From: Patescibacteria group bacterium
Lineage (GTDB): Bacteria; Patescibacteriota; WWE3; UBA101185; UBA10185
Reading direction: 5' to 3'
Assembly (NCBI GenBank): GCA_042571515.1
Contig: JBHPHX010000003.1
Location: 1-42,708 of the forward strand
DNA length: 42,708 nt
Below are positions 3,531 through 41,322 of the stretch, one piece after another. Within the stretch, counting starts at the first letter, position 1. Every line of letters starts with the position of its first letter. The notes beneath the pieces are model-generated. The model was not told the DNA's origin. It made no database searches and saw only the letters and a list, made by a program, of their open reading frames with translations. The translations under genes were made by a program, and so were the position numbers.

Positions 3531-3553
3531 GTAACAGATGGATATTACCAAAC

Positions 3554-4438
3554 TCATACATATTTCCACGCATCAACATTAAGTCCCATAACTTTTTCAA
3601 ACTTTTCAATATCATTCATATAATATGCAGTTAATATTCGCTTTTCTTTTTCCCCGAGAGGCTCATATGATTTGGAACGCGTATTTAAAAGGGTATATAA
3701 CCTGTATAATTTTCTATTCCCGGCAAGATATCTCTGATAGGCTGTTGCTGGCAATAATTTTTCTCCCATTTTTAACAAACGTGTACATGTATCTCTTAGT
3801 GTGTTAAATCTCGGTGCAAAAGCGGGATTGATACGCTTATTTAAACTTTGAGGTACAAAAGTGGTATCTACCCCTAGAAATGCATATAACTTCCTAAGTT
3901 CCATGCTTCTATCGTTAATGAAATTTTCAAGAATCATGAAGTGCATCTGTTTTTTTGGGAATAAGTCTAAAAATTTTTTAACATGTTCATAATATAAATA
4001 CTGTTTCATAAGGGGATGTTCCGTTTTTACTACCTCTTGAAACGTTTTTGGGACTGGGCTTTTCACACTGGATTTTAGGAAGGTATACATAGAATATACT
4101 GCTTTGGCGGGATTTCTAAAGACGCCAAGTATTTTAACATGTGGAAAATATTCATAAATTCTTTGAGCAGCTTTGGGGTCTGGTAAATAACTAACGCTAA
4201 ACTCACCTTGTATTTGGCGAGGCTTTAGATTATTAAATTGGCTATAATACCATTCAATTCCCTTATAGAATTCAGAGGTAAAGTCTTTATGTAACCCACC
4301 CCACGTAGGTGTATTAAAAAAGTTTACCTCTTTTGATATCTCTGGTAAAAAAATCTGAGGGTGTTCGCTAAGACATTGGGATATCCATGTAGTCCCACTT
4401 CTTGCAGCCCCAATTCCTATAAAATCAATTATTTTCAT
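3554..4438 (-). CDS. Sulfotransferase family protein
   Basis: 5'-PSB-like motif IGIGAARSGTTW and 3'-PB-like FRNPAKAVYS. Start placed at the internal MKIIDF (4438), because a TTGAAA-17-TATAAT promoter lies inside the longer track ORF (3554..4477). Confidence 0.8.
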   Translation of the reverse strand: MKIIDFIGIGAARSGTTWISQCLSEHPQIFLPEISKEVNFFNTPTWGGLHKDFTSEFYKGIEWYYSQFNNLKPRQIQGEFSVSYLPDPKAAQRIYEYFPHVKILGVFRNPAKAVYSMYTFLKSSVKSPVPKTFQEVVKTEHPLMKQYLYYEHVKKFLDLFPKKQMHFMILENFINDRSMELRKLYAFLGVDTTFVPQSLNKRINPAFAPRFNTLRDTCTRLLKMGEKLLPATAYQRYLAGNRKLYRLYTLLNTRSKSYEPLGEKEKRILTAYYMNDIEKFEKVMGLNVDAWKYV

Positions 4439-4448
4439 TAACGTTGGA

Positions 4449-4477
4449 ATTATACAAGTAACTAATAGGGCTTTCAA
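4449..4477 (-). promoter_or_regulatory. Sigma70-type promoter of the sulfotransferase gene
   Basis: Minus strand reads TTGAAA gccctattagttacttg TATAAT (17-nt spacer). The -10 box ends 10 nt before ATG 4438. Confidence 0.6.
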
Positions 4478-4522
4478 TTTACGCGTTTTTTACAGCAATC
4501 GTAGCTGTGGTAAACTACCACC

Positions 4523-5179
4523 ATGGACATCTGTTTGTCAGGTAGGCAAAAAAAATGGAAAACACTTCTACCAAATCTAAAGGATAAGGTGATTTTAGAT
4601 GTTGGCTGTTCATATGGCTGGCTCGAAGAAATTGTACTGGAGGCTGGGTGTAAAGAAATCTGGGGTATAGAACCGGATGGAAATAATCTGAAAGATGTTA
4701 GAAAGAAATATCCCCAAGCGCACTTTAAAAAGGGTTCCGTTTTTAACTTATCTTTTGCAGATAACACTTTTGATATTGTTGCATTATTTGATGTTATAGA
4801 ACATATCCCTAGAGGCACTGAACATAAGGCTTTAGTTGGAATCAGAAGAGTCCTTAAAAAAAATGGAACTTTGTGCCTGTCTACTCCGCATCAAAATATA
4901 TTGAGCAACGCATTAGATCCAGCATGGTATTTAGGACACAGACATTATTCTACAAAACGGATTATAGAACTCCTAACTAAGAGTGGTTTTACAGTAACTT
5001 TTGTAGATTATGGAGGAGGGCTAGCCTCCCAGCTCTACATGATTCTATTCTATTTGTATAAATTTGCTCTAAAACGAGATATGCACTTGTTTGAAAAACG
5101 GTTTAATAATATCCGTGAAAGGGAGTACTTATCGACTGGGGGCTATGTTACATTGTTTATAAAAGCAAATGCTTCGTAA
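4523..5179 (+). CDS. Class I SAM-dependent methyltransferase
   Basis: 218 aa. Motif I VILDVGCSYGW and post-I/II FDIVALFDVIEHIP are typical of Methyltransf_11/23-type enzymes. Confidence 0.85.
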   Translation: MDICLSGRQKKWKTLLPNLKDKVILDVGCSYGWLEEIVLEAGCKEIWGIEPDGNNLKDVRKKYPQAHFKKGSVFNLSFADNTFDIVALFDVIEHIPRGTEHKALVGIRRVLKKNGTLCLSTPHQNILSNALDPAWYLGHRHYSTKRIIELLTKSGFTVTFVDYGGGLASQLYMILFYLYKFALKRDMHLFEKRFNNIREREYLSTGGYVTLFIKANAS

Positions 5180-7876: not shown

Positions 7877-7880
7877 TTCT

Positions 7881-8031
7881 GGTGACCCTAGTGTCTGAAA
7901 AATGGAACACACTGGTCCCATCAATTATACAAATTTCCGAGGTGCTTTCCACCCCTAACAACACCACACCCCTTGCCTATAATTAGAGGAGATATACACA
8001 TGGTATTAATACCCAATAGTTAAGAGAACAC
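7881..8031 (-). repeat. 151-bp repeat copy 1 (tRNA-Glu-3'-end-like terminus on the minus strand)
   Basis: About 89% identical by eye (about 17 mismatches) to 8624..8774. The minus-strand end reads ...gtgtgttccatttttcagacactagggtcacca, resembling the tRNA-Glu T-arm/acceptor GGGGGTTCGATTCCCCCTGGGGTCACCA. Confidence 0.85.
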
Positions 8032-8128: not shown

Positions 8129-8536
8129 TTATGACATGTAGAGCGGCCTTGTCCAGGTACAGATACGAATGAGAATCTCCCCAATTATAAATGCCAATGC
8201 AGCTAATAGCACCAAGCCTACAATAAGACCACTTTTGTCTTTGGAGTACTCTTCCTCGTAGTAGCGGTTCTTTCCTGGTTTAAACCAGAAAAATCCAACA
8301 TCTTGGAGCCATGAAGTTATGTATTCCAATGCCCATCCGCAAAACGCCGAGTATCCAATACGTGAGATGGCCAGTAAGGCCCAGAAGCCTACCAAGTTGT
8401 TAGGATAGAGGTTATCTATAAAGGCAAGAAACCCCGTAATTTTAAGCACCTGAGCCACAATAATGAGAAAGCCCACGATGAGTAACGCCAACAGAATACC
8501 CGTGATTGACTGAGTTAATTCCTTTAACAGTTTCAT
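8129..8536 (-). CDS. Hypothetical membrane protein (135 aa, about 4 TM helices)
   Basis: AAGGAG RBS 7 nt upstream of the ATG. Own TTGACA/TAATAT promoter and terminator. Bracketed by the two 151-bp repeats. Confidence 0.65.
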   Translation of the reverse strand: MKLLKELTQSITGILLALLIVGFLIIVAQVLKITGFLAFIDNLYPNNLVGFWALLAISRIGYSAFCGWALEYITSWLQDVGFFWFKPGKNRYYEEEYSKDKSGLIVGLVLLAALAFIIGEILIRICTWTRPLYMS

Positions 8537-8581
8537 TTTTATCTCTCCTTATACATTCTTTAGTTTATAATGTTAGTTGGT

Positions 8582-8610
8582 ATATTATATGATTTGAGGT
8601 TTTGTGTCAA
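8582..8610 (-). promoter_or_regulatory. Consensus-like sigma70 promoter (TTGACA-17-TAATAT) with conserved upstream TATCCTATAGT module
   Basis: Minus strand reads ccattatcctatagtTTGACAcaaaacctcaaatcataTAATAT. The 21-mer ccattatcctatagtttgaca recurs exactly at 14843..14863 (+). Confidence 0.7.
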
Positions 8611-8623
8611 ACTATAGGATAAT

Positions 8624-8774
8624 GGTGACCCTGGTGTCTGAAAAATGGAACACACTAATGCCATCAATTATACAAATTTCCGAGATGCTTCCCACCCCTA
8701 ACAACACCACACCCCTTGCCTATCGTTGAGAGAGATATATTTATAGTATTAATACCCAATAGCTAAGAGAACAC
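8624..8774 (-). repeat. 151-bp repeat copy 2 (tRNA-Glu-3'-end-like terminus)
   Basis: Paralog of 7881..8031. The minus-strand end ...cagacaccagggtcacca is immediately followed by ttatcctatagtTTGACA. Confidence 0.85.
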
Positions 8775-8800
8775 CGTGCAGGGAACAAGATATTTAGTAA

Positions 8801-9208
8801 TTAACCGCGCAAATCGAAATTTTTGTCAATGCTCTCTTCTATGACTCCCATCATAGCTTTTTTTACCTTGTCATCTTTTCCATAAGTTTCTGAACTAATT
8901 CCATATTTTTCTGCATTATAGAGCCTCTCACCGTTGACAAATCCAATAAAACCATCCATCCTTTCCAGAGGTACAGTTCCATCCTTATCTAGGCTTTCAC
9001 CAATTTCCACAAAAGCCTCATGAGCCTTTTTACTGTAAGATAAAAACGGGCTACCCTCCTTTGATGATAAAAACGGGTCATTTCCTCCTAATTTAGCTTC
9101 TAGGCTCTCTGCTTCCTTTTTAAACATTTCAGAGAGGTCTGATGACGAGAATTCCTTTTCGACTGATTCTCGAACTTCATCTGGAGTAATTTGTTCATTT
9201 TTTGACAT
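8801..9208 (-). CDS. Hypothetical acidic protein (135 aa)
   Basis: Long ORF with coding-like composition and no recognisable motif. A TATAAA-like -10 box lies about 5 nt before the ATG. Confidence 0.55.
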   Translation of the reverse strand: MSKNEQITPDEVRESVEKEFSSSDLSEMFKKEAESLEAKLGGNDPFLSSKEGSPFLSYSKKAHEAFVEIGESLDKDGTVPLERMDGFIGFVNGERLYNAEKYGISSETYGKDDKVKKAMMGVIEESIDKNFDLRG

Positions 9209-9370
9209 AATATTTTATACCTTCAATTATTTATACTATCTATATTCTACTAAAAATTGGCTAATACACAAATATTTGTGGTGTGGGGAGGGAATGAAAA
9301 GGAGAACGTTAGGCTATTTTTAATCCACTAATATTTTTGGTTAGGGTTTGTGCAAGTCATATTTATTGCG

Positions 9371-9415
9371 CAAAAAAAAACAGGCACCGCCTAGACATTG
9401 TCTAAGAAGTGCCTG
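9371..9415 (-). terminator. Rho-independent terminator after the Cys-rich peptide gene
   Basis: Minus strand reads CAGGCAC...(inner TAGACA/TGTCTA)...GTGCCTG followed by a T9 run. Confidence 0.75.
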
Positions 9416-9436
9416 AAAGGCATCGTTCCTTTTCAA

Positions 9437-9769
9437 TTATCCTCCGCAGCAGTCCCAAGAAGGGAGCTCGCTTCCGCAAGAGCAAGGACAACTGCAGAAT
9501 GCAGTATCTTTGTTGCAGGCGTAGCACCAGGCGGGGTCGTCGTATTCCTCAAAGTCATTCTCTGGGTAGCCGAGGTGGTCATCGGAAGAGGACCGTCCCT
9601 CCTCTATGGCTGCCAGGTTATTTTGCAGTCTGTCCATTTCTTCTTTGGGGACTATTTCATGCAACTGAATCATTGCTGAATTATAATCCGCTTCCTCAGG
9701 TGCATAAGGAGCAGCGTTTCTTATCGCTAGCTCTTGAACCTGTTCCTGCCATGTTTTATTGCTTGTCAT
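9437..9769 (-). CDS. Acidic 110-aa protein with Cys-rich C-terminus (9 Cys in the last 30 aa)
   Basis: AAGGAGG RBS 5 nt upstream of the ATG. Own consensus promoter and strong terminator. C-terminus WCYACNKDTAFCSCPCSCGSELPSWDCCGG. The local GC is clearly above the surroundings, so all three overlapping frames stay open. Confidence 0.7.
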   Translation of the reverse strand: MTSNKTWQEQVQELAIRNAAPYAPEEADYNSAMIQLHEIVPKEEMDRLQNNLAAIEEGRSSSDDHLGYPENDFEEYDDPAWCYACNKDTAFCSCPCSCGSELPSWDCCGG

Positions 9770-9820
9770 CTCAGCCTCCTTGGCTTTAAGATTGGTTAGT
9801 TACCTCATGTTCTTAATTTG

Positions 9821-9863
9821 AAAACAAAAAATGCCAAGTTTTGCTTGGAACTGTGGGCAAAAC
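9821..9863 (-). promoter_or_regulatory. Terminator-like hairpin with a competing upstream pairing in the 5' UTR (candidate attenuator)
   Basis: Minus strand reads CCAAG-caaaa-CTTGG then cATTTTTTGTTTT, 50 nt before the start codon. Upstream GTTTTGC (9863..9857) can pair with GCAAAAC, which overlaps the hairpin. Confidence 0.35.
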
Positions 9864-9904
9864 AGGTTCTACTCAAAACTCAGCGTTCTTTAACTTACAA
9901 GCTA

Positions 9905-9933
9905 ATTATAGTACATAACCCTAACTCTGTCAA
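9905..9933 (-). promoter_or_regulatory. Perfect consensus sigma70 promoter TTGACA-17-TATAAT
   Basis: Minus strand reads gctatcctatagtaTTGACAgagttagggttatgtacTATAAT. Carries the same TATCCTATAGT upstream module as the other two promoters. Confidence 0.7.
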
Positions 9934-10081
9934 TACTATAGGATAGCATGCTTAATTTATGCTAAACACGGTCAACTGGGGTACTATAGGTGTTAGTTTT
10001 GACGATTTGCTTGCTTAATAAGGCTATTTGCGTCGTTAAAGACCGATTATACGACGTTGTATTCGACTCCCATACAGAGCT

Positions 10082-10696
10082 TTATCCAGTCTGGCAATCT
10101 CTATGCTTAGCAGCATAATATGGGCCATAATTTTCACACTCCCTTAATATAGTTTTTTTGCGAGGATGTCTTGATGGTATTTGCTTTGCAAATATTTTCA
10201 TTTGTGTTGGATGGGTTATATCGAGATAGAACATTACTTTGTCCTTGGTACCTACCCTCCTCAACGCTGGGTATATCAGTAAAGGTTCCATAATCTTCGC
10301 TATCTTAATAAGGTTCTCTCGTCTTTTTTGGTAAATCATGATTTCGTATGTGTCTTTCTTTGTCCACTTACGCTTTCTTATAGAACCATCTGTGTCAAAC
10401 ACCCCAGCCACAAACTCCTCTGGATGTTTTAGTTTCGGTAAATGTAACCAGTAAAAGTTTTTCTTAAACGGAACGAACATGTGGTCACAAGGGTTTTTTG
10501 CTAAACCTGCATATATTCTATGGCAAGTTTCTTTTCCTCGTCCCAAACGTGGTTCCAATGATTGCATTAACTTCATCAAAACATCCCTATAGCCATCCTC
10601 AGCAGTAGTAATTTTTATCCCATATTTGTTATATGGGGTTCCATCCCCTAGGTAAACCCCCAATAAATATTCGTAGGTCCTTCTATCCATAACCAC
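10082..10696 (-). CDS. LAGLIDADG-family homing endonuclease (double-motif, free-standing)
   Basis: 204 aa. Two LAGLIDADG-type motifs, YLLGVYLGDGT and FVAGVFDTDGSI, about 85 aa apart. GTG (10696) or ATG (10690) start with a TATAAT box 9 nt upstream. Confidence 0.85.
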   Translation of the reverse strand: MVMDRRTYEYLLGVYLGDGTPYNKYGIKITTAEDGYRDVLMKLMQSLEPRLGRGKETCHRIYAGLAKNPCDHMFVPFKKNFYWLHLPKLKHPEEFVAGVFDTDGSIRKRKWTKKDTYEIMIYQKRRENLIKIAKIMEPLLIYPALRRVGTKDKVMFYLDITHPTQMKIFAKQIPSRHPRKKTILRECENYGPYYAAKHRDCQTG

Positions 10697-10717
10697 TATG
10701 CGCTGATTATACCAGGT

Positions 10718-10729
10718 GGGGGGGGGGGG
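10718..10729. repeat. G12/C12 homopolymer tract
   Basis: 12 consecutive G in an AT-rich intergenic region, starting 6 nt upstream of the LAGLIDADG -10 box (minus-strand sense). Confidence 0.95.
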
Positions 10730-10772
10730 TTATATACCGATTGTCCTGGCGATAATTATTAATTTATATTAG

Positions 10773-10839
10773 ACCTCACCAAAATGTACAATAATTTTTT
10801 TCAAAAAAGTTGCAAACATAGTCCGCTATGGTCGACCAG
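10773..10839 (+). repeat. Repeat blocks A+B upstream of the kinase gene
   Basis: A = acctcaccaaaatgtacaataattttttt. B = aaaagttgcaaacatagtccgctatggtcgaccag. Diverged copies of both follow the gene in the swapped order B' then A' (11722..11794). Confidence 0.8.
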
Positions 10840-10866
10840 GGTTTATATCCTGTTATAATCACTAAT

Positions 10867-11721
10867 GTGGTACATACTATGAGAGATTTTAAATCTGCAG
10901 CAAAACAAGCACTACCCAAACGTGTAAAGATAGAAAATACCCTTAAAATTCTATTAAGTCAGCCTGATAGAGCAATCTTTTTAGCAGAAGAGTCAAAACT
11001 TGTCTTAAAGGTATATAAAGATAAAAATGCCCTTGAAAAGGAATATCTGATGGCCCAAAAGGCACAAAAAATGGACATACCAGTACCAGAAATGATGGGC
11101 CTAGATGTTGGAAATCTAACAGTTCTTGTTATGAAATACGTAAATGGTTCCCCCTTAACCTCGAATAATGTCAAAGCTGCTTTAGAAGCTGGGAAATATC
11201 TTGAGTTATTCCACAGTATTGATACGGTGCTACCTTTCTCAGGAGGACAGAACTCATGGGATGAGTTTATCCTATGGTGGTCAGGCAAAGAACTGCAAAA
11301 AATAAAGCAGTTAGATATATTTGGTGGAACGGAAATACTAGAAATTGAAAATGAGCTTAGAGACTTACTCCCAACATTGGTGTCAAGACCAATCGTTACA
11401 CTCCACGGGGACTTGCAAGCAGAGCACATACTTGTTGATGCCCAACACGACAGGGTTCTTGCATTTCTTGATTTTGTAGACTCCCAACCCGGAGACCCAC
11501 TATTAGATATTGCGGTTCTCTCGTTGTGGGACAACAAACTCGCGGACTTGATTCTGGAGAGCTACAAAGGTATAGAAAATAGTACAAAAACTCAAAACTT
11601 ACTTGTAGGCTATCGTTTGTTACGCCACCTCGCAGTGATACCTTGGTTATCAGAGAGGGGTCGTCAGAAACAAGCAGAAAAAAGTGCTGTTGCCATTAGA
11701 ACACATCTCCTGGAAAAGTGA
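10867..11721 (+). CDS. Aminoglycoside/choline-kinase-like phosphotransferase (APH family)
   Basis: Brenner/catalytic motif LHGDLQAEHILVD and FLDFVDSQPGDPLLDIA (DxxxxGDPxxD). The track ORF starts at 10828, but that ATG lies inside repeat block B. A TATAAT box (10854..10859) sits 7 nt before the in-frame GTG at 10867. Confidence 0.75.
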   Translation: MVHTMRDFKSAAKQALPKRVKIENTLKILLSQPDRAIFLAEESKLVLKVYKDKNALEKEYLMAQKAQKMDIPVPEMMGLDVGNLTVLVMKYVNGSPLTSNNVKAALEAGKYLELFHSIDTVLPFSGGQNSWDEFILWWSGKELQKIKQLDIFGGTEILEIENELRDLLPTLVSRPIVTLHGDLQAEHILVDAQHDRVLAFLDFVDSQPGDPLLDIAVLSLWDNKLADLILESYKGIENSTKTQNLLVGYRLLRHLAVIPWLSERGRQKQAEKSAVAIRTHLLEK

Positions 11722-11794
11722 AAAAGTTACAAACATAGCCCGCTGTGGTCAACCAGTCATTTTAAACCTCACCAAATCGTGCAATAAATTTTTC
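11722..11794 (+). repeat. Repeat blocks B'+A' downstream of the kinase gene
   Basis: B' = aaaagttacaaacatagcccgctgtggtcaaccag, starting right after the stop codon. A' = acctcaccaaatcgtgcaataaatttttc. cctcacca resembles the tRNA-Lys 3' end CTCCCTCACCA. Confidence 0.8.
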
Positions 11795-11798
11795 TAAT

Positions 11799-11914
11799 TG
11801 ATGACCCCAGGGGGAAGAACGCGAAACTGCGTTTCGCTACCCTTTCTCTCGTTTCACTCGAAAAACGTAAGAACCCCCTGCTTCGCTAGAACTCTCACTT
11901 CCACTAAGGACATC
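11799..11914 (-). pseudogene. Truncated tRNA-Glu-like copy (D-arm to 3' end) with a ~56-nt GC-rich insert in the T-loop
   Basis: Minus strand reads GTCCTTAGTGGAAG...GGGGGTTC[ttacgtttttcgagtgaaacgagagaaagggtagcgaaacgcagtttcgcgttctt]CCCCCTGGGGTCATCA, against the real GGGGGTTCGATTCCCCCTGGGGTCACCA. No 5' acceptor strand is present. Confidence 0.7.
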
Positions 11915-11952: not shown

Positions 11953-12027
11953 TGGTGACCCCAGGGGGAATCGAACCCCCGTTTACAGGATGAAAACCTG
12001 TTGTCCTAACCACTAGACGATGGGGCC
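11953..12027 (-). tRNA. tRNA-Glu (anticodon UUC), CCA encoded
   Basis: Manual cloverleaf: GGCCCCA TC GTCT AGTGGTTA GGAC A ACAGG TTTTCAT CCTGT AAAC GGGGG TTCGATT CCCCC TGGGGTC A CCA (75 nt). Confidence 0.9.
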
Positions 12028-12060
12028 CTACTACGCCGAGGCTTTGTAGGGCAAGCCAAG
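12028..12060 (+). repeat. Mini hairpin element abutting the tRNA-Glu 5' end
   Basis: CCCTAC-tacgccgaggcttt-GTAGGG-caagccaag. A near-identical element (TCCTAC-tacgccaaggcttc-GTAGGA-caag) is inserted in pseudo-tRNA-His copy 1 at 14032..14061. Confidence 0.75.
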
Positions 12061-12101: not shown

Positions 12102-13526
12102 GTGAATCTAATATTAAACCTGTACACATATCTTACAACTCTGCTTTTGGCATTGGCCCCGTTTGTTCCCAGCTATACAGAAGGAGTTACTGGCCAGCCC
12201 GAATCCTTTCTACCAAGCCAAGCCACCTCAAGAACAGACAGAACCATCTCTGAGCTCATGTACAGGGGGCTTTTTAAATATGATATTTATGGCACTTTGG
12301 TTCCAGACCTAGTTTCTACATGGAGTATTTCAGAAGACGGTATGGTTTATACAATCACAATTAAAGAAAATCAATATTGGTCAAATGGTAAAAAAATTAC
12401 TGCCGATGATGTAATTTACACTTCTTATAGTGTTTCTAACTTGGCTGGGGTTGGAACAGATAAGGTTGATGATCTTACAGTAAGATTTTCTCTTCCCAAT
12501 AAATACTCTCCATTTTTAGGTTTACTGACTGTTGGAATCATGCCAGCGGGGGAAGTAGAAAAAGGAAATCCTATATTTCCAACTTCTAGTGGTCCATTTA
12601 GAGTTGCTAGAGTAGAAAGAGAAGGGCCCTTGATAAGAGAGGTTGTGCTTGTTCACAATAACAGGCAGGAAAAGATAAAAAGGTTGTCCTTTAGATTTTA
12701 TGCCAATGAGAAGGAGCTTGTTACCGCGGCAAGACTTGGCGATATAAATGGGTTTTTAGCGGGAAAAGAACATCAAATTGAGGGTTTTTCGGAGTATAAA
12801 TTTCCAGTGCAGGGTGTTTACTATGCGTTACATTTTAATTTGAGGGAGGAAAAATTTCAGGATTTGGTTTTCCGCCAGAAGTTAGCCAAAGTGTTACCCT
12901 TGGATGAACTTACCTTTAATAAAGGTATTCCAGTTGAGGGAGCCATTAGCCGTAGCGCATTTACTGACGACTCAATTAATTATGATTATTACGACGAAAC
13001 AGTTTCAGATGTTTTAAGTGATACTACGGTAATAATTTCAGTGCCGGATATAAAGGAACACCTACATTTAGCAAATGAGATCAAAAGGTTTTGGGAGGGA
13101 AGTTTAGGGCTAGATGTTAGAATTCGCCAAGTGGATCCAGATGAGATTGTGGAGGACGTTATAAATAAACGTGATTTTGAGGTACTTTTGTTTGGACAAG
13201 AGGTTAGTAGAGATCCAGATAGATATGTAAATTGGCATTCTACTCAAATAGATCCCCCAGGGTTAAATATTAGTGGTTTTGAGCATGTTAGAAGTGATAG
13301 GGCTTTAGAGGAGGGTAGAAATGAGCCTGATCAAGAGGCGAGAATTTCCCACTATAATCAGTTTCAAAATGTGATTCACGAACAGGTTCCAGCAATTTTC
13401 CTATACCACCCATTTGCAACATATTATGTTTCGGATTTTTATGAGGGTATTGGTGAGAAGCACACATTTACGCTTACGGATAGATTTTTAGATTTTGATA
13501 ACTGGGAGAGAGTTAAAACTAATTAG
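12102..13526 (+). CDS. ABC-transporter family 5 (peptide/nickel type) substrate-binding protein, orphan
   Basis: 474 aa. Hydrophobic N-terminal signal/anchor. TWSISEDGMVYTITIKENQYWSNGKKITADDVIYTS matches the SBP_bac_5 signature region. GTG start 6 nt after a TAAAAT box. No permease or ATPase genes adjacent. Confidence 0.8.
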   Translation: MNLILNLYTYLTTLLLALAPFVPSYTEGVTGQPESFLPSQATSRTDRTISELMYRGLFKYDIYGTLVPDLVSTWSISEDGMVYTITIKENQYWSNGKKITADDVIYTSYSVSNLAGVGTDKVDDLTVRFSLPNKYSPFLGLLTVGIMPAGEVEKGNPIFPTSSGPFRVARVEREGPLIREVVLVHNNRQEKIKRLSFRFYANEKELVTAARLGDINGFLAGKEHQIEGFSEYKFPVQGVYYALHFNLREEKFQDLVFRQKLAKVLPLDELTFNKGIPVEGAISRSAFTDDSINYDYYDETVSDVLSDTTVIISVPDIKEHLHLANEIKRFWEGSLGLDVRIRQVDPDEIVEDVINKRDFEVLLFGQEVSRDPDRYVNWHSTQIDPPGLNISGFEHVRSDRALEEGRNEPDQEARISHYNQFQNVIHEQVPAIFLYHPFATYYVSDFYEGIGEKHTFTLTDRFLDFDNWERVKTN

Positions 13527-13851
13527 TTGTTTTAAAATCCACTTTACTTAGTTTCGTTAAATTAAATATTTTTATTATAAAGTTTTGAGCTATTTCGTAA
13601 TCTTTTATATTTGTTATTTCCATTAACTTGTTTGTAGCATATTCTAATTTTTGTACGCCTTTTTTTCTACCCGAAAATTTTTTTTCAGCTTCAAATATGA
13701 TTTTTATTGCCACTTTTACATTTTCTTTTAAATTTTTCTCATTTCTATTTTTTGTGAGCTTCCTCCATACTTGAGAAGTAATAAACCCAAGTATAAATAA
13801 TAGAACTGCTGCTACTAGTTCAAATAGTATGTTAGAGAAATAATTTTCCAT
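13519..13851 (-). CDS. Small single-TM protein, LL-H-type holin-like (tentative)
   Basis: 110 aa. One N-terminal TM helix, then a charged helical region (KVAIKIIFEAEKKFSGRKKGVQKLEYATNKLMEI). Recalled from memory as similar to the Holin_LLH family. Not verified. Confidence 0.45.
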   Translation of the reverse strand: MENYFSNILFELVAAVLLFILGFITSQVWRKLTKNRNEKNLKENVKVAIKIIFEAEKKFSGRKKGVQKLEYATNKLMEITNIKDYEIAQNFIIKIFNLTKLSKVDFKTTN

Positions 13852-13995: not shown

Positions 13996-14018
13996 TTCGC
14001 TCAGCCAAATGTTTGTTT

Positions 14019-14069
14019 GGTGACCGTAGTTTCCTACTACGCCAAGGCTTCGTAGGACAAGCAGTGGTA
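14019..14069 (+). pseudogene. Pseudo-tRNA-His 5' fragment 1 (positions -1..21) with a clean 30-nt hairpin insertion
   Basis: GGTGACCGTAGTT[tcctactacgccaaggcttcgtaggacaag]CAGTGGTA. The flanking 21 nt are identical to the real gene. Preceded by the same 17-nt leader, cagccaaatgtttgttt, as the real tRNA. Confidence 0.8.
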
Positions 14070-14124
14070 CAATACCTAATTGAGAGGCTACCTTGGCTTG
14101 CCACACGTAGCTTTAGCGAAGTAT

Positions 14125-14207
14125 GGTGACCGTAGTTCAGTGGTAAGAACCTTCGCTTCGCGAAGAACCTTTCCTTTTGCTTCGCAAAACGTAGAACGCC
14201 GCTCTGT
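14125..14207 (+). pseudogene. Pseudo-tRNA-His 5' fragment 2 (positions -1..~35) with a 46-nt insert in the D-loop flanked by a TA duplication
   Basis: GGTGACCGTAGTTCAGTGGTA[agaaccttcgcttcgcgaagaacctttccttttgcttcgcaaaacg]TAGAACGCCGCTCTGT, then diverges inside the anticodon loop. Confidence 0.8.
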
Positions 14208-14241
14208 TTAGAGTTATAATCTAACAGCCAAATGTTTGTTT

Positions 14242-14317
14242 GGTGACCGTAGTTCAGTGGTAGAACGCCGCTCTGTGGAGGCGGATGTCGTGGGTTCGAG
14301 TCCCATCGGTCACCCCA
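14242..14317 (+). tRNA. tRNA-His (anticodon GUG) with encoded G-1 and CCA
   Basis: G(-1) GTGACCG TA GTTC AGTGGTA GAAC G CCGCT CTGTGGA GGCGG ATGTC GTGGG TTCGAGT CCCAT CGGTCAC C CCA. Confidence 0.9.
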
Positions 14318-14383
14318 TTTTTAGAGGTTGTTATAACAACAATTCCAACGACCAATTAATATTCAGCTTGACAGCGGGTAGGG

Positions 14384-14737
14384 TTATAAAGATTTGGTAA
14401 ACACATAAATTGGAGTAATAGTACTGTTGATAAGAAAACCAGTAGCCAGCCCTGTAAAGATAAAGGAACCTATGGCCATAAAGATTCCTAATTTGTACAT
14501 CAAGTCACTTTTGTCTTTCAGTATAAGATTAAAATTTGCTAAAGCTACAAATATATTCACAATACCCAAAAAGATTAGTATAGCGAGGTATGGATATGAA
14601 ATATTAACTTCCGTTTCAACATCTAAGTTCGCGTACATATTCTGCAATCTAGGCATTGTAATGAACAAGTAAAAGAGACCCAGGGTCAGTTGAATAATAC
14701 CAAAAAAGGAATTAATCAAACCAATAATCTTTTTCAT
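14384..14737 (-). CDS. Hypothetical membrane protein (about 117 aa, 4 TM helices)
   Basis: Hydrophobic ORF. Start moved to ATG 14737 (MKKIIGL) because a TATAAT box ends 6 nt upstream. The track start at 14755 is a TTG. Confidence 0.55.
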   Translation of the reverse strand: MKKIIGLINSFFGIIQLTLGLFYLFITMPRLQNMYANLDVETEVNISYPYLAILIFLGIVNIFVALANFNLILKDKSDLMYKLGIFMAIGSFIFTGLATGFLINSTITPIYVFTKSL

Positions 14738-14789
14738 AGCGTAATTATACACCAACCGAAGAGACCAGTTTCCGCGCTAGGACGCCTTG

Positions 14790-14845
14790 CAATACTCCGA
14801 TTTTTGAATAAATCTGGTTCAAACTACCATTCACCAGCCACCCCA
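14790..14845 (+). repeat. R1: tRNA-His-3'-like intergenic repeat
   Basis: caatactccgatttttgaataaatctggttcaaactaccattcaccagccacccca. Family consensus is ...TGAATAAATnTGGTTCAAAnTAG...ATCAGCCACCCCA. Followed directly by the promoter module ttatcctatagtTTGACA. Confidence 0.8.
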
Positions 14846-14857
14846 TTATCCTATAGT

Positions 14858-14886
14858 TTGACACTGTATTGAGTTTGATATAGAAT
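14858..14886 (+). promoter_or_regulatory. Sigma70 promoter TTGACA-17-TAGAAT with the TATCCTATAGT module
   Basis: ccattatcctatagtTTGACActgtattgagtttgataTAGAAT. Drives CDS 14935..15234. Confidence 0.7.
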
Positions 14887-14934
14887 CACCGCAACGTAAA
14901 TCATTCCAAAATAACTAGTGAAAAGGAGAATTAG

Positions 14935-15234
14935 ATGAGATTAATAAATTATTTAAGTAGATTTTGGTTCAAATTATTTCCGTTAAAAAGACGTAGAAGT
15001 TTCAGTCCTCATAAAGTTGAGATAAGCATTAATCCGCCCGAAAACAGAAAAACCTTAAGAGGGCCTGTAGACATTTATTGGTTTGGACTAGTTTTCGAAG
15101 CATGTGAAATAAATTATGGAGATGAAAACGAGTGCCAATCAGTAGTTAAATTTCCAAACGGAAAATTTGGTTATGCTAACTATTCAAGAGATGATATTGA
15201 AGGCTTAAATAAAGACGATATCCATAGCTTGTAA
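14935..15234 (+). CDS. Hypothetical protein (99 aa)
   Basis: AAGGAG RBS 7 nt upstream. Own promoter and terminator. No recognisable motif. Confidence 0.6.
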   Translation: MRLINYLSRFWFKLFPLKRRRSFSPHKVEISINPPENRKTLRGPVDIYWFGLVFEACEINYGDENECQSVVKFPNGKFGYANYSRDDIEGLNKDDIHSL

Positions 15235-15264
15235 ATATAGAAAAGGAAATGAGATACAATTAAA

Positions 15265-15303
15265 AGGCCCATATAGGTTGTCCCGATGGGCCTTTTTCTT
15301 TTT
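15265..15303 (+). terminator. Rho-independent terminator
   Basis: AGGCCCAT-ataggttgtcccg-ATGGGCCT followed by TTTTTCTTTTTT. Confidence 0.75.
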
Positions 15304-15313
15304 TACACCAGAA

Positions 15314-15377
15314 CCTCCTGAAAAAACCCCAATTTCTGAATAAATTTGGTTCAAAGTAGCCCCCATCAACCACCCCA
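15314..15377 (+). repeat. R2: tRNA-His-3'-like intergenic repeat
   Basis: cctcctgaaaaaaccccaatttctgaataaatttggttcaaagtagcccccatcaaccacccca. Confidence 0.8.
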
Positions 15378-15411
15378 GGGTTTTTGGTTTTAATGGCAGT
15401 CTTTTAACCAC

Positions 15412-16071
15412 CTATATATTTCGTAAAGTCTCCAGTACGTGTGCGTTAGAAGAATCTATATTAGAAGGGTTGTACAAAACGGTTTTCCAACCCAACCCCC
15501 TCGCTGTCTCAATATGCGCATTACTATTTTCCACAAATAAAATTTTATCTGGAGAGGTTTTCGCTAAGCCAGAAGCTAGTTTAAATATCTCTGGTTGGGG
15601 TTTCTGGAAACCCACCTCACTTGAGTCTACAATTACGTCCCATTCAATGTTTGGTAGTAGTCCCTTGGATTCTATTGCACCCAACATTCCTGGATACATG
15701 TTTGTTAGCAGACCCACCTTGTATTTTCTTTTAAGTTCTAAAATTATTTCACCAAGCGATGGGTTAGGTTCAAAGCGATTAACAAAATCATTAAGGAGGG
15801 AATAATCCCCAGGGAGTTTCAGTTTAAACGTATTTTTTAGAATGCTAATAAAACTATCGGTTTCTTTATCACCAAGACAAAATTTAGATTCCTCAATGCT
15901 GAATAGTTGCCCTAATTTATCTCTATCCTCCTTGCGTACCCCCAACTCATCTAACATCCTCTCCCATTTATCAGTTTTAGAAAAATCTAGAATAACTACA
16001 CCGCCAACATCAAAGTATATAAACTCAATAGCCATCTCTTTCTCAATATTATTCCCTGAGGACTCTTCCAT
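15412..16071 (-). CDS. HAD-superfamily hydrolase (subfamily IA-like)
   Basis: Motif I FIYFDVGGVV (the DxGG variant seen in some IA phosphatases), GLLTNM (motif II region) and ILFVENSNAHIETARGLGW (motif III/IV region). An alternative start MAIEF lies at 16035. Confidence 0.75.
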   Translation of the reverse strand: MEESSGNNIEKEMAIEFIYFDVGGVVILDFSKTDKWERMLDELGVRKEDRDKLGQLFSIEESKFCLGDKETDSFISILKNTFKLKLPGDYSLLNDFVNRFEPNPSLGEIILELKRKYKVGLLTNMYPGMLGAIESKGLLPNIEWDVIVDSSEVGFQKPQPEIFKLASGLAKTSPDKILFVENSNAHIETARGLGWKTVLYNPSNIDSSNAHVLETLRNI

Positions 16072-16177
16072 ATCGCAAAGCCTTTCAACTATATAGACTT
16101 ATTATCATTATACATAACTGTACTCAAACTCAAAATTTTGTTGTCTAATTATCTAGCCTCAGGTACAATTACAGTGT

Positions 16178-16390
16178 ATGTCAAATGGTAGTGATGTAGA
16201 ACTTGGTAGTATGGATGCAAGCATCCGCGAAACTGATTTGGGAAACCCTGAGCAAGAGTACCATGACGAGCAGGAGGAGTTGAGGAGTGGTGTAACTCCT
16301 GAGGAAGAAGAGATGGAAAAGAGGGATTGGGATGAAAGAGAGCGAAAAAAATGGGACCCTGAGGCTGTAAAAGACGATAAGTCTAAGTAA
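16178..16390 (+). CDS. Small highly acidic hypothetical protein (70 aa)
   Basis: ORF with a TACAAT box 8 nt before the ATG. Low-complexity E/D-rich sequence, so coding status is uncertain. Confidence 0.4.
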   Translation: MSNGSDVELGSMDASIRETDLGNPEQEYHDEQEELRSGVTPEEEEMEKRDWDERERKKWDPEAVKDDKSK

Positions 16391-16391
16391 A

Positions 16392-16512
16392 CCCCTGAAA
16401 AACCTCAATTTCTGAATAAATAAGGTTCAAACTAGTACTTATCAGCCACCCCATATATAAAGGCTGTAACAACAGTGTTTTCAGAGATACCCAAACATAC
16501 AATTCGAACCAG
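16392..16512 (+). repeat. R3: tRNA-His-3'-like repeat plus a diverged copy of the tRNA-His downstream flank
   Basis: cccctgaaaaacctcaatttctgaataaataaggttcaaactagtacttatcagccacccca, then tatataaaggctgtaacaacagtg...gatacccaaacatacaattcgaacc (parallels R4). Confidence 0.8.
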
Positions 16513-16537
16513 ACCTTAATTGATATATAATATAAAT

Positions 16538-17278
16538 ATGAAGGATGCATACAATGATATTTTTAAAGATAAAGAAAGAATACTAGTAGTTTTCGCTCAC
16601 CCTGACGACGCGGAAATATATTGTGGGGGAACTATTGCACGATTAACTCAGGATAGTAAGAAAGTACGTATTGTGAAGGTGTCTTCAGGAAATAAGGGCT
16701 CTAGAGAGGACAATATCTCTGAAAGAGACCTCAAGGCATTAAGGGAAAAAGAAGATTCAGAAGCCATGAAGGTTTTAGGTATAGCCTCAGAAGACAATAT
16801 TTACTTAAACCTGGGGGATGGCGAAATCAATAACGATATAAAGACAATTGAGCTGCTAGCAAAGCAAATTAGAATATTCAAGCCTGATTTAATCATTACT
16901 CATAATCCAGAGGATGTGATTATTAAATTTGATGAAAATGATAGCTGGGTTAACCACAGGGACCATAGAAACACGGGCATTTCTGCAGTGGACGCCTCAT
17001 ATCCATATAGCAGAGATTTATTGTTTTTTCCCGAGCATTTTGATGATGAAAAAGCAACATCACATTCGGTAGTAGAATATCTTTTCGTTGACTCATACAA
17101 TCACGAGGACGAGATATTTATAAATGTAACGGATACCGCTGGAACGAGAACAAAGGCAACAGCAAGCCACGCATCTCAATACTCAGAGGAATATTCAAAA
17201 GAAACAACGGATTATTTTACAATTAGAGAAGGTTCAAATAAAAGATGGGAGCGATTTAGGTACGTAAAGGCAGATTAA
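16538..17278 (+). CDS. PIG-L/LmbE-family N-acetylglucosaminyl deacetylase
   Basis: VVFAHPDDAEIYCGGT and NHRDHRNTG (HxDH) motifs. Start set at ATG 16538, 6 nt after TATAAT (16526..16531). The track start at 16520 is a TTG. Confidence 0.8.
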   Translation: MKDAYNDIFKDKERILVVFAHPDDAEIYCGGTIARLTQDSKKVRIVKVSSGNKGSREDNISERDLKALREKEDSEAMKVLGIASEDNIYLNLGDGEINNDIKTIELLAKQIRIFKPDLIITHNPEDVIIKFDENDSWVNHRDHRNTGISAVDASYPYSRDLLFFPEHFDDEKATSHSVVEYLFVDSYNHEDEIFINVTDTAGTRTKATASHASQYSEEYSKETTDYFTIREGSNKRWERFRYVKAD

Positions 17279-17295
17279 ACTAAAAGCGTAGAAAA

Positions 17296-17408
17296 CACTT
17301 CAATCTCCTCATAAATCTGGTTCAAAGTAGCACTCATCAGCCACCCCATTTTTAGAGGTTGTTATAACAACGTTTCCGAAGATACCCAAACGATACCTCG
17401 AACCAAAA
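17296..17408 (+). repeat. R4: tRNA-His-3'-like repeat carrying an exact 30-nt copy of the tRNA-His 3' boundary
   Basis: 17342..17371 (caccccatttttagaggttgttataacaac) is identical to 14311..14340, the last 7 nt of tRNA-His plus 23 nt of its downstream flank. Upstream part: cataaatctggttcaaagtagcactcatcagc. Confidence 0.9.
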
Positions 17409-17497
17409 CTATATAATCTGTAAAACTTACAACCTGCTTTGTTGTATAATGCAGCCAAATGAGATGAGTGGAATAATCTGACTGAAAGGAGGTTGAG

Positions 17498-17839
17498 ATG
17501 GACTGGAAAGGTAAGATTGGTGAACATCATGATGGCGAAGAGGGTAGGTTGGCTATAGAAAAAGAAGTGGAATATGAAGCTAATTTAAAAAAGTACAGGA
17601 TAAGATTTAGGTGCCCCGTGTGTGGCGTTGAGCCAAAAGGGCCTAGGAAGGGAATGCTTCGGCCAGTACCCCTTAATGGTGCAGGAACTTGGACCTCTCT
17701 TGATAATAACAAACCCTCTCCGATTACTTATTGGACCTCACCCCCAAAAGGATATTGGCAGTGCACCTCTTGTAAGTTATGGGCATGCCCTAATTGTATA
17801 TATCGTGAAATTTGCAAAACCTGTGCTGAGAAACTGTAA
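17498..17839 (+). CDS. Zinc-ribbon / Cys-rich hypothetical protein (113 aa)
   Basis: AAGGAGG RBS 5 nt upstream. CPVCG ... CTSCKLWACPNCIYREICKTCAEK gives several CxxC pairs. Confidence 0.65.
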   Translation: MDWKGKIGEHHDGEEGRLAIEKEVEYEANLKKYRIRFRCPVCGVEPKGPRKGMLRPVPLNGAGTWTSLDNNKPSPITYWTSPPKGYWQCTSCKLWACPNCIYREICKTCAEKL

Positions 17840-17864
17840 CCACCCAACACCAAATAAGTCGAAT

Positions 17865-17910
17865 GACCCCCTTAGTTCTAAATGAGCCTTTGGGGGTTGT
17901 TTCTTTTCTA
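17865..17910 (+). terminator. Candidate terminator
   Basis: ACCCCC-20 nt loop-GGGGGT followed by TGTTTCTTTT. The large loop keeps confidence moderate. Confidence 0.45.
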
Positions 17911-17918
17911 CACAAAAA

Positions 17919-17980
17919 CCTCTTGAAAAACCTCAATTTCTGAATAAATTTGGATCAATTATTGATTATCAGCCACCCTA
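17919..17980 (+). repeat. R5: tRNA-His-3'-like intergenic repeat (most diverged 3' end)
   Basis: cctcttgaaaaacctcaatttctgaataaatttggatcaattattgattatcagccacccta. Confidence 0.75.
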
Positions 17981-18024: not shown

Positions 18025-18834
18025 TTACTTAAGGATGCTTTCCCCTGCCTCTTTTATTTCAGAATCCCTTTGCCTATCTATCCAGTATTTTATTGCATTT
18101 TCGCTACCATCAACACTGTTATTAACTAATTGCTTTAATACAGTTAAAACAGCTTTTCTTTCCCCTGTGTTTCCCTTCTTAAATAAAATGGTTAGCAGTA
18201 TAAAGATGCTACTTCCCACCCTAGCTATTGGGTGTTTCTCAGCCTCTCTGGTATTAGGGTGCCCAACATACGCCACAACCTCCTCTTTATCCGCTAGGAG
18301 CATCTCTGTAAGTCTATGAGAACCATCTAGTATATGTATTTTCCCATCCTGTTCCTTCATAAGGAGTTTCTCAAAAACCATTTTTTTACCTGAAGGTTTA
18401 TATGAGAGCAGGCCTTCTGGATCACTGTCGTCTGCCTTTTCGAAATAATTTAATAGGTAATTCTTGAATTTAAGAGAGTCACCATTTACCTTGTCTGAAA
18501 ATATAACCTTATTTGCCCTGGAATCCATTCCGGTAAGAATTAGGTCTTTCACATGCCAGATTTCCTCGTTCCAAGTATAGCTATCTCTACCTATAATATA
18601 AAAAACCCCGTTTAAGCGGAATGTAAACGAAATTGCTTCTAAAAGTGCCCAAATTTTATTGGTGGGTAGCTCCTGAATGGTTTTTACAATAGCTTCTGAA
18701 ACCTCATTAGTAGTTGGATCTTTAAAAATATTAGAAAATTCTACTTCTAGGTAATATCGGGCCACGTCTACTGATGGGACATTTTCCACAATTATTTTTA
18801 TTGGTTTTGTAGCGGGTTGGGGCTTGTCTTCCAT
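18025..18834 (-). CDS. Hypothetical protein with ParB/Srx-like (DGQHR-like) domain
   Basis: KIHILDGSHRLTEMLLADKEEVVAYVG resembles the ParB N-terminal/DndB-type DGxHR motif. Start set at ATG 18834, 6 nt after a TATAAT box. The track start at 18843 overlaps that -10 box. Confidence 0.55.
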   Translation of the reverse strand: MEDKPQPATKPIKIIVENVPSVDVARYYLEVEFSNIFKDPTTNEVSEAIVKTIQELPTNKIWALLEAISFTFRLNGVFYIIGRDSYTWNEEIWHVKDLILTGMDSRANKVIFSDKVNGDSLKFKNYLLNYFEKADDSDPEGLLSYKPSGKKMVFEKLLMKEQDGKIHILDGSHRLTEMLLADKEEVVAYVGHPNTREAEKHPIARVGSSIFILLTILFKKGNTGERKAVLTVLKQLVNNSVDGSENAIKYWIDRQRDSEIKEAGESILK

Positions 18835-18996
18835 GTTTCCCATTATACCTTAAGAAACTACAACCATTTGGCTACAAACCAGTCATTGTACGTACTAAAA
18901 CATTATCGCCCTCTTTAATACCCATCACCCTTATTGCTGCATCGTAAACAAAAAGGGCCCATGAATTTGATTCACAAACCCTTATCGAGAGCTTCA

Positions 18997-41139: not shown

Positions 41140-41251
41140 TGTTCTATTGTAACAAATTAAGGGGAGGGCCCAAACCTAGGTTTCTTGTGTATTTTGATGT
41201 TAGTTATAGTACAATATCGGGGTAAGAAAGGGCCCAAACCTATCTTATCAT

Positions 41252-41322
41252 GCCTCTGTCTGACTCGCGTCGCTCGTCAGCGATCTCGCTGCGCTCGATC
41301 TAGTGCTCAATGAATAGAGCAC
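41252..41322 (+). pseudogene. Pseudo-tRNA-Arg 5' fragment with a 43-nt GC-rich insert after position ~8
   Basis: GCCTCTGT[ctgactcgcgtcgctcgtcagcgatctcgctgcgctcgatcta]GTGCTCAATGAATAGAGCAC, against the real GCCTCCGTGGCTCAATGGATAGAGCAC. The same cat leader triplet precedes both. Confidence 0.7.

Follow-up and report, generated by a model that had tools for sequence, protein, structure and literature searches.

Arrays of small integrase-less gene cassettes at the 3' ends of tRNA-His and tRNA-Glu in a Patescibacteria chromosome

Integrons are built from an IntI tyrosine recombinase encoded next to the attI entry site, attC sites that fold as single-stranded hairpins, and promoterless cassettes of one orientation that are read from the promoter Pc. 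In other described systems, units accumulate at the end of a chromosomal gene. The ssrA islands of Dehalococcoides are associated with the serine recombinases DsiB and DsiA at the tmRNA gene; they stand in tandem, are bordered by repeats of the gene 3' end, and carry ahead of this repeat a conserved motif that does not align with the gene (McMurdie et al., PMC3146451). Composite islands of the staphylococcal cassette chromosome (SCC; CcrAB/CcrC), including pseudo-SCC members, consist of cassettes bordered by 3'-end repeats of one chromosomal gene, rlmH (PMC7029136; bioRxiv 10.1101/336396). Tycheposons (bioRxiv 10.1101/2020.12.28.424599) and the islands catalogued by Islander (PMC4383910) enter beside a tRNA gene, with older material lying distal. 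Finally, cis-mobilizable elements (CIMEs) related to streptococcal integrative and conjugative elements (ICEs) are flanked by att sites, lack integration and transfer genes, and accumulate in tandem at the attachment site (reviewed in PMC5704250). Here, we analyze a 42.7-kb stretch of chromosomal DNA from a member of the Patescibacteria (the window, meaning this whole stretch), in which a family of repeats, R, follows a tRNA-His gene and a second one, E, follows a divergent tRNA-Glu gene. Loci from other genomes are designated by L-numbers.

The genomes of Patescibacteria are tiny, mobile elements have seldom been recognised in them, genetic tools are nearly lacking, and how accessory genes come and go is poorly understood. 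Our literature searches returned no description of arrays of this kind in the group. The GC content of the window is 36.5%, and two of its proteins have nearest named homologues from ‘candidate division WWE3’. Two related contigs from metagenome-assembled genomes carry the label Saccharibacteria.

The central result is a recurrent architecture that we regard as genuine, namely arrays of single-gene cassettes with modular ends at two tRNA genes of the window and at the same tRNAs in several relatives. Units at tRNA-His measure 0.5-1.1 kb and hold one or two genes each. The features of this first array are the following.

14243-14317, + strand: tRNA-His(GTG), found by ARAGORN and Rfam; putative fixed entry site
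14318-14340, + strand: type A cassette left end, directly 3' of the tRNA CCA, with an internal 14-bp palindrome, GTTGTTATAACAAC; identical to the R4 flank
14384-14737, - strand: cassette 1, small membrane protein, antisense to the tRNA (ORF list and sequence reading); no Pfam or NCBIfam family
14785-14845, + strand: R1, followed by the type B left end TTATCCTATAGTTTGACAC
14935-15234, + strand: cassette 2, 99-aa protein, with a ribosome-binding site and a visible terminator hairpin
15317-15377, + strand: R2
15412-16071, - strand: cassette 3, gene 1, HAD-family hydrolase (Pfam PF00702/PF13419, 9e-8), antisense to the tRNA
16178-16390, + strand: cassette 3, gene 2, 70-aa acidic ORF, no family found
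16393-16453, + strand: R3, followed by a type A left end with a promoter-like site
16538-17278, + strand: cassette 4, PIG-L/LmbE-family deacetylase (Pfam PF02585, 1e-27)
17288-17348, + strand: R4, homologous in its left part to the R behind PIG-L in L036
17349-17371, + strand: type A left end of cassette 5, identical to 14318-14340
17498-17839, + strand: cassette 5, 113-aa Cys-rich (zinc-ribbon-like) protein, with a terminator hairpin
17920-17980, + strand: R5, the most decayed copy (GGATCAAT..., CCACCCTA), nhmmer E 0.02
18025-18843, - strand: 272-aa protein, weak match to the ParB/Srx fold; in relatives, too, the conserved neighbour of tRNA-His on the distal side

An earlier reading of the letters and ORFs of the window (the sequence-only reading) had already seen five repeats after tRNA-His, with starts placed correctly to within a few bases, and had taken them for a family tied to the tRNA 3' end. 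Our scans agree with it. A nhmmer profile built from R copies retrieved only R1-R5 from the whole window, with E values of 5e-9 to 6e-11 for R1-R4, and two motif scans gave four matches each against none expected from 100 shuffles. No R copy lies outside 14785-17980 in the window, so that the scatter typical of REP- or MITE-like repeats is not seen. A candidate sixth, decayed repeat after the ParB-like gene (about 18912-18941) was discarded, 38% of shuffles scoring equally. All five repeats lie on the + strand, as tRNA-His does, and all R copies share CACCCCA, the last bases of tRNA-His. Formal alignment supports the further claim that the repeats are closer to each other than to the tRNA: pairwise identity is 73-85% over 61 nt, whereas aligning the 3' 31 nt of R with the 3' end of tRNA-His takes a 5-nt gap and then yields 77-81% (R1-R4) or 63% (R5). 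The exact 30-nt copy of the tRNA-His 3' boundary and its flank (17342-17371 = 14311-14340) was verified by reading the sequence, and the diverged version of this flank reported beside R3 aligns at 67% over 48 nt. The list of genes between the repeats also stands, the label ‘ParB-like’ being borne out only weakly, by fold.

Orientation separates the repeats from the genes that they border. Three units of the tRNA-His region are antisense, whereas the orientation of R is constant and follows that of the tRNA and not that of the adjacent genes. The best promoter matches of the region fall in the cassette left ends; indeed, the type B left end after R1 contains a promoter-like site with 11 of 12 consensus matches. 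Type B left ends were found only within the arrays. In base composition the two arrays (GC fractions 0.374 and 0.397) are not set apart from the window (0.365). A search of a phage database with the region gave matches to the tRNAs only.

The array at tRNA-His is not unique. The sequence-only reading was right about that array but had not noticed a second one, which starts at the divergent tRNA-Glu gene, runs leftwards and has its own repeat; a single SBP gene separates the two tRNAs. Its features are listed below.

11953-12027, - strand: tRNA-Glu(TTC), anchor of the second array
11799-11880, - strand: pseudo 3' end of tRNA-Glu, made of GGGGGTTC, an insert of about 50 nt and TTCCCCCTGGGGTCATCA; 154 nt downstream of the tRNA
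8129-11721, mixed strands: cargo of the array, as follows
10828-11721, + strand: APH-family kinase
10082-10696, - strand: free-standing LAGLIDADG homing endonuclease
9933-9905, - strand: promoter match, 12 of 12, in a type B left end
9437-9769, - strand: 110-aa Cys-rich protein
8801-9208 and 8129-8536, - strand: two 135-aa proteins
8623-8774, - strand: E repeat 1 (E1), 152 nt, ending in AGGGTCACCA (the tRNA-Glu terminus) and followed by TTATCCTATAGTTTGACAC
7880-8031, - strand: E repeat 2 (E2), 152 nt, 89% identical to E1, also ending in AGGGTCACCA; distal limit of the array

The 19-mer TTATCCTATAGTTTGACAC after E1 is identical to the one after R1 and includes a promoter match that ranks among the two best of the region. 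The two arrays thus share a left end while each has a repeat that finishes like its own tRNA. Repeats with the tRNA-Glu 3' end were also seen in L020. In addition, the APH-type kinase gene stands between two pairs of direct repeats of about 35 nt, in the order A-B-gene-B-A (10766-10845; 11720-11793), and one copy of B overlaps a promoter-like site of this gene.

Relatives were sought with R-pattern scans of species-representative genomes and of JGI metagenomes, and by looking up the context of the SBP, ParB-like and PIG-L proteins. The pattern scans gave few contigs, all Patescibacteria-like except two probable chance matches. One of the three matches from the genome scan (L002, Verrucomicrobiota) looks like chance, and L017, from the metagenome scan, was set aside, its match lying inside a 740-aa ORF. 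Exact matching of three window proteins led to no contig. R stands downstream of tRNA-His wherever the context is visible (L003, L004, L005, L018, L028, and L036). The succession tRNA-Glu / SBP / tRNA-His forms a conserved hub, around which about ten related WWE3/Patescibacteria genomes carry from zero to at least seven differing cassettes. Up to the ParB-like gene, there are no units in L030-L035, one in L022, three in L028 and five in the window. In L005, tRNA-His is followed by the ParB-like gene and then one R; in L022, by one small gene; in L024 and L025, by a serine-recombinase element with a type I restriction system. The sequence-only reading had called the units cassette-like and had named identical syntenic content with scattered R copies as the outcome that would speak against this; what we found is the opposite, genomes with the same flanking genes differing in the number and kind of units.

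The species of L003 (L003, L004, L009, L010, L014, and L018) has seven units, counted over L003 plus L014, and carries seven R copies after tRNA-His, 0.5-1.5 kb apart, with one or two small genes in each interval (among them a membrane-anchored protein, a HIT-like HxHxH protein and a zinc-ribbon protein), all in the direction of the tRNA; beyond them come core genes in synteny with the window. The array of L012 is mixed, with one canonical R and several copies of a second type (cAGTTCTAACTTCCTCCACyACGTGACCCCA) having the same length and the same ACCCCA end. A homologue of the HAD hydrolase stands first in it, and its cargo comprises three HAD hydrolases, an S51 peptidase and a DUF3800 protein. 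Within the L003 species, the strains L003 and L009 are 99.8% identical over 2.9 kb, and four of their six differences fall in or beside R. These differences include L009 5974-5978 and 4695; in L003, the centre of the changed R is the same as in a second R of its array and resembles a conversion tract. In L005, a histidyl-tRNA synthetase-like fragment (motif 3 region, 1-670, - strand) directly follows the single R, next to tRNA-His; it is known by translation only and has no obvious N-terminal part.

The PIG-L deacetylase allows one cassette to be followed between genomes. Its orthologues share 74-82% identity, above the 71% of the best relative found for the core SBP protein, and the gene ranks first after tRNA-His in L036 and L037, third in L039 and fourth in the window, with newer units standing between it and the tRNA. 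Compared with L036, the window is homologous over the stretch that begins right behind CCACCCCA and ends at the start codon, and again, past the gene, over the left portion of the next R. Hence, both cassette ends are co-inherited with the gene, and the cassette with its two ends is a conserved unit.

At the far side of the array lies the ParB-like gene. It is bordered by R copies in L005 and L028, and we treat it as either an old distal neighbour or the first cassette. The AlphaFold2 model of its product has a pLDDT of 90, and the Foldseek match to the ParB-N/sulfiredoxin fold is weak (E 9e-3). A role as the recombinase was rejected, the protein having this weak fold match and no recombinase features. 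Its family has 35 homologue clusters with no Pfam or NCBIfam match. In the five genomes examined, the gene follows tRNA-His at a distance of at most about 4 kb, in antisense orientation every time.

What kind of sequence R is can be approached from several sides. The fold energies of 12 R copies are no better than those of shuffles (z from -0.9 to +1.3), and R has no Rfam match, even at E up to 10. Stems found by hand (CTGGT/ACCAG in R1; a minihelix in E2) were rejected, as they are not kept in other copies. Because R shows no excess folding, no Rfam match and no maintained stems, because its orientation follows the tRNA, and because it is absent from the viral contigs of IMG/VR (see below), it is best read as a duplex-DNA site.

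The only block invariant across all R types and all tRNA-His genes is ACCCCA. To its left, R differs from the tRNA by a fixed offset, which the sequence-only reading had also missed. The box (G/A)(G/A)TT(C/T)NA starts 30 nt before the CCA end in 32 of 32 R copies and 25 nt before it in 11 of 11 tRNA-His genes, the former count being inflated because a pattern of fixed spacing supplied about two thirds of the R set, about 11 copies having been found independently. Copies free of this selection are those of the window, L028 and L036, and the second type in L012. The same shift is seen in E, in which the distance from box to CCA is 29 nt against 24 nt in tRNA-Glu (two genomes). In serine integrases, the outer motif, bound by the zinc-ribbon domain, is displaced 5 bp outward in attP half-sites relative to attB half-sites (Rutherford et al., PMC3783163). 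By analogy, the 5-bp offset of R and E would match the attP/attB geometry of large serine integrases.

The acceptor stem limits where an exchange could take place. The acceptor of the window tRNA-His is GTGACCG/CGGTCAC, with the pairs A4-T69 and C6-G67, whereas R has CAGCCAC, with the clade-typical C69 and A67, and thus differs at positions 67 and 69. Since an exchange 5' of position 70 would break the acceptor stem, the crossover would lie 3' of position 69, confined to CACCCCA or to the first bases beyond. To the right of CCA, the tRNA flank equals the R4 flank for 23 nt and the R1 flank equals the E1 flank for 19 nt, after which the sequences diverge abruptly; 19-23 nt is about the length that the other half-site would be expected to have. 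Among the tRNA-His genes compared, the commonest acceptor is GTGGCTG/CAGCCAC, a form retained by the R copies, while the window tRNA has two compensated changes. A crossover in the T-loop with R as a complete attP was also considered. It explains the dyad AATTTG-GTT-CAAATT and the extent of R (about 50 bp) but is ranked lower because the exchange would give an essential tRNA a 12-nt T-loop.

Shorter scars lie near the tRNAs as well. Each consists of an exact copy of the tRNA from T-loop to CCA (18-21 nt), with an insert of tens of bases before it. They occur in the window at 11799-11880 (the pseudo 3' end of tRNA-Glu, which is interrupted in the T-loop), at equivalent positions 67-162 nt after tRNA-Glu in L020, L022 and L024, and at 11691-11717 in L022, 148 nt after tRNA-His. 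Unlike R and E, they keep the box spacing of the tRNA itself, and they point to events of another kind, with crossing-over inside the T-loop.

Candidate recombinases come from the relatives. In L024 and L025, a 524-aa protein with Resolvase and Recombinase domains and a 145-aa resolvase-domain protein (a small serine recombinase) directly adjoin tRNA-His. The best NCBIfam match of the larger one is CcrB (E 5e-32), at 111 bits, far below the family cutoff of 900. In L025, its ORF (3115-5131) runs antisense through the whole tRNA-His gene, and in L030 a 513-aa homologue (14633-16187), uncalled in the source annotation, likewise runs antisense through tRNA-Lys. As the ORF crosses the entire tRNA, the last 28 or so residues of these recombinases are the complement of the tRNA. 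The spacing of R, the recombinase pair at tRNA-His and the homologue at tRNA-Lys together point to a large serine recombinase, and the enzyme is probably CcrB/DsiB-like. Capture of the Xer/dif type was rejected, as two repeat families are in use, each tied to one tRNA, and a dif-like dyad is lacking.

These observations can be brought together as a tRNA-anchored accretion array. A cassette would consist of a conserved left end of 19-23 bp with a promoter, one or two genes, often with a terminator, and an R right end of about 50-60 bp finishing with the last bases of tRNA-His. Serial site-specific recombination would take place into the invariant terminal CACCCCA of the tRNA-His gene, the newest cassette entering beside the tRNA and displacing older ones outward; as the exchange would involve no more than a few invariant bases at its very end, the tRNA would stay whole. 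On the far side of the SBP gene, the tRNA-Glu array would have arisen in the same way with E, the repeat specific to that tRNA. As the cassettes encode no recombinase, the enzyme would act in trans, the likeliest candidate being a CcrB/DsiB-like large serine recombinase as found at tRNA genes of relatives, with R as an attP-type half-site. This account as a whole, integrase-less cassettes serially integrated at a tRNA end by a recombinase acting in trans, probably a serine recombinase, is the one that we tentatively favor, at slightly less than an even chance. Its parts differ in strength. Serial site-specific integration at the tRNA terminus with an enzyme in trans is well supported as a class of mechanism, by comparative anatomy, and the assignment to serine recombinases draws on analogy and on the relatives. 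Directly observed are the repeats and their confinement to the 3' side of the tRNA, the second array, the differing content of a syntenic site among relatives, the PIG-L gene inherited with both cassette ends, the 5-bp spacing rule and the lack of RNA structure. The crossover position, the enzyme family and any present or recent mobility of the cassettes as units are what we infer.

Several observations weigh against this account, in addition to the partial pattern selection of the R set. As the sequence-only reading had noted, no integrase is visible: none of the 50 ORFs scanned across the 42.7-kb window has a recombinase domain, tblastn found no serine-recombinase remnant in it, and no recombinase adjoins the arrays in L014 and L012. 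The link to serine recombinases relies on relatives whose SBP is only 57-62% identical. To our knowledge, recombination of attP with attL is not carried out by canonical members of the large serine integrases; for repeated entry, a relaxed specificity of the Ccr kind would be needed, which we assume. R is conserved about 20 nt further left than a 25-bp half-site needs, and a mirrored or inverted GGTTCAA box was not found at a consistent distance in the right flanks. In L039, the genes are kept while R is not detectable; arrays can therefore become fixed and their repeats decay. Cassette order does not vary among five contigs of the L003 species that come from several metagenomes, and neither a circular form, nor an empty site, nor the gain or loss of a cassette was seen between near-identical strains. 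Finally, R was not found among the 2.9 million viral contigs of IMG/VR, in which four scans with R-derived patterns gave either nothing or 14 chance matches without the 3' part of R.

The alternative that survives best holds that each unit is the remnant of a full-size integrative element or prophage with its own integrase, now mostly deleted, so that the small units were never mobile and R is an attR scar. Full-size serine-recombinase elements do sit at tRNA-His and tRNA-Lys in relatives, the very short scars described above exist at both tRNAs, R5 is decayed and R is lost altogether in L039. The same degenerate build-up beside tRNAs is part of the tycheposon model (10.1101/2020.12.28.424599). 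However, many independent deletions would be needed in at least six genomes, each sparing one or two genes, a promoter-bearing left end and a full R, and none of the arrays holds an integrase fragment. A displaced tRNA end would show the 25-nt spacing of the tRNA and not the 30 nt of R, and the PIG-L unit has both ends in two genomes. We consider such an origin rather unlikely.

Accretion could also be due to a tyrosine integrase encoded elsewhere, with CACCCCA as a 7-bp overlap and R and its flank as core and arm sites. Most known tRNA-targeting integrases are tyrosine recombinases (Islander, PMC4383910; tycheposons), an invariant block of 7 bp suits a typical overlap region, and tandem arrays would form easily since the core is regenerated. 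Yet no tyrosine recombinase lies beside any tRNA-His or tRNA-Glu locus examined, no inverted core-type repeats surround CACCCCA, and the 5-bp spacing rule is left without explanation, which makes a tyrosine enzyme unlikely.

It is quite improbable that the arrays arose with no dedicated recombinase, through DNA uptake and homologous recombination or gene conversion between related cells, with the tRNA, R and the left ends serving as portable homology. R copies within an array are more alike than the R copies of orthologous cassettes (R4 of the window vs. R in L036), the R centre of the L003 species matches another R in one strain only, as a conversion tract would, and exact identities of 19-30 nt mark the cassette junctions. 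Cultivated Saccharibacteria are reported to be naturally competent (PMC10633639). Such exchange can spread and homogenise arrangements but does not create junctions exactly at the CCA of two different tRNAs. The homology tracts are short (20-60 nt), and tRNA-specific repeat families with a constant 5-bp offset are not accounted for.

That R instead works in RNA or in transcription, as a tRNA-like signal for 3' processing or as a terminator, the cassette look being incidental, may be suggested by its resemblance to a tRNA 3' end, its terminal CCA and the uniform gene direction in the L003 species, but is highly improbable given 12 copies that fold no better than shuffles, no Rfam match, candidate stems not maintained between copies, a fixed R orientation beside three antisense units, and genes that persist without R in L039.

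Returning to accretion by an enzyme in trans, the comparison with described systems shows what is shared and what is not. As in the Dehalococcoides ssrA islands, tandem units lie downstream of a single-copy tRNA-like gene, and each is bordered by a direct repeat of the gene 3' end, ahead of which lies a conserved motif of the element that cannot be aligned with the gene. Some of the Dehalococcoides units lack an integration module and are read as cis-mobilizable, and the units here are integrase-less too. Moreover, the DsiB ORF reads across attL into its target with a small serine recombinase adjacent, a layout also seen at tRNA-His of L025, with a comparable tRNA-crossing ORF at tRNA-Lys of L030. 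In contrast, the Dehalococcoides islands measure 10-30 kb, with an integration module in 16 of the islands identified, whereas the present units are single-gene and 0.5-1.1 kb long in a window without recombinase; the target is tRNA-His or tRNA-Glu instead of tmRNA, and the host belongs to the Patescibacteria. The likeness to SCC composite islands is in cassettes bordered by 3'-end repeats of one chromosomal gene, in ccr-less members that are assumed to be moved in trans, and in the best match of a relative's recombinase being CcrB. SCC differs by its rlmH target and its multi-kb units, and here the CcrB match is distant, the target is a tRNA and the window has no recombinase.

With tycheposons and Islander islands, the arrays share entry beside a tRNA, with older material distal, partial tRNA copies at the boundaries, content that differs among relatives and a streamlined host genome. 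What is usual for a tRNA island was found at both tRNAs, an intact tRNA and same-strand 3'-end repeats bounding units, with variable content between syntenic flanks; an internal integrase is absent from the window and present in L024/L025 at the same tRNA. However, those islands use tyrosine recombinases, measure several kb, and have partial tRNAs that are plain displaced fragments, whereas the repeats here form a conserved family of their own with altered spacing, and the units are single-gene with modular ends. CIMEs resemble the present units as att-flanked DNA without integration or transfer genes that accumulates in tandem at an attachment site, but a CIME is defined by a neighbouring ICE supplying the integrase in cis, and the window holds no such partner.

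The sequence-only reading had offered an integron-like label. Cassettes of about 0.5-1 kb, each with a recombination-site-like repeat of about 50-60 bp beside a fixed entry site, do recall integrons, but there is no IntI, no attC-type hairpin, the cassettes have their own promoters and both orientations, and entry is at a tRNA gene end. The label does not hold. Tandem accretion at a tRNA 3' end, which the same reading had also brought up, is the better match, with the integrase-less units of serine-recombinase composite islands as nearest precedents, and the array is best filed as a miniature, integrase-less form of SCC/ssrA-island-type or tRNA-island accretion.

A broader proposal is possible but doubtful, namely that WWE3 possesses a gene-capture platform analogous to integrons, in which the 3' ends of tRNA genes, at least those of tRNA-His and tRNA-Glu placed back to back about one core gene, serve as fixed entry sites for single-gene cassettes with a promoter of their own and an attP-type site of about 50 bp that derives from the tRNA end, and a CcrB/DsiB-like enzyme from elsewhere or from larger elements inserts, excises and reshuffles them. 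Such a platform would give ultra-small genomes a compact, rapidly exchangeable store of accessory genes. A two-faced hot spot stacking single-gene cassettes at tRNA-Glu and tRNA-His would offer a concrete route for gene flux in the group. If the serine enzyme of the relatives is the recombinase, then the enzyme, an R site of about 50 bp and a tRNA end would make up a minimal integration system, and the biology of SCC and ssrA islands would be found to reach tRNA targets as well as cassettes of a size that is otherwise known from integrons only.

Beyond the arrays, the window encodes LeuRS, a methionine aminopeptidase, a UvrD-like helicase, a MacB-type ABC exporter, many GT-C/PMT-type glycosyltransferases and four tRNAs. 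Between SBP and tRNA-His, a gap without any called gene in the relatives examined, the window has a gene for a 110-aa holin-like protein (13519-13851, - strand; Phage_holin_6_1, 5e-6). Upstream of tRNA-His, tRNA-Arg and tRNA-Lys, partial copies of tRNA 5' halves occur (14002-14207; 41250-41340; 41440-41660), broken by GC-rich inserts of about 40-50 nt with many TTCGC/GCGAA hairpins. The leader of tRNA-His and its first 13 nt are duplicated exactly (14002-14031 = 14225-14254). Adjoining this tRNA-His 5' fragment is a 30-nt piece of the tRNA-Glu leader with its CCTAC...GTAGG hairpin (14033-14062 vs. 12027-12056, 90% identity), which hints at a rearrangement between the two divergent tRNA loci.

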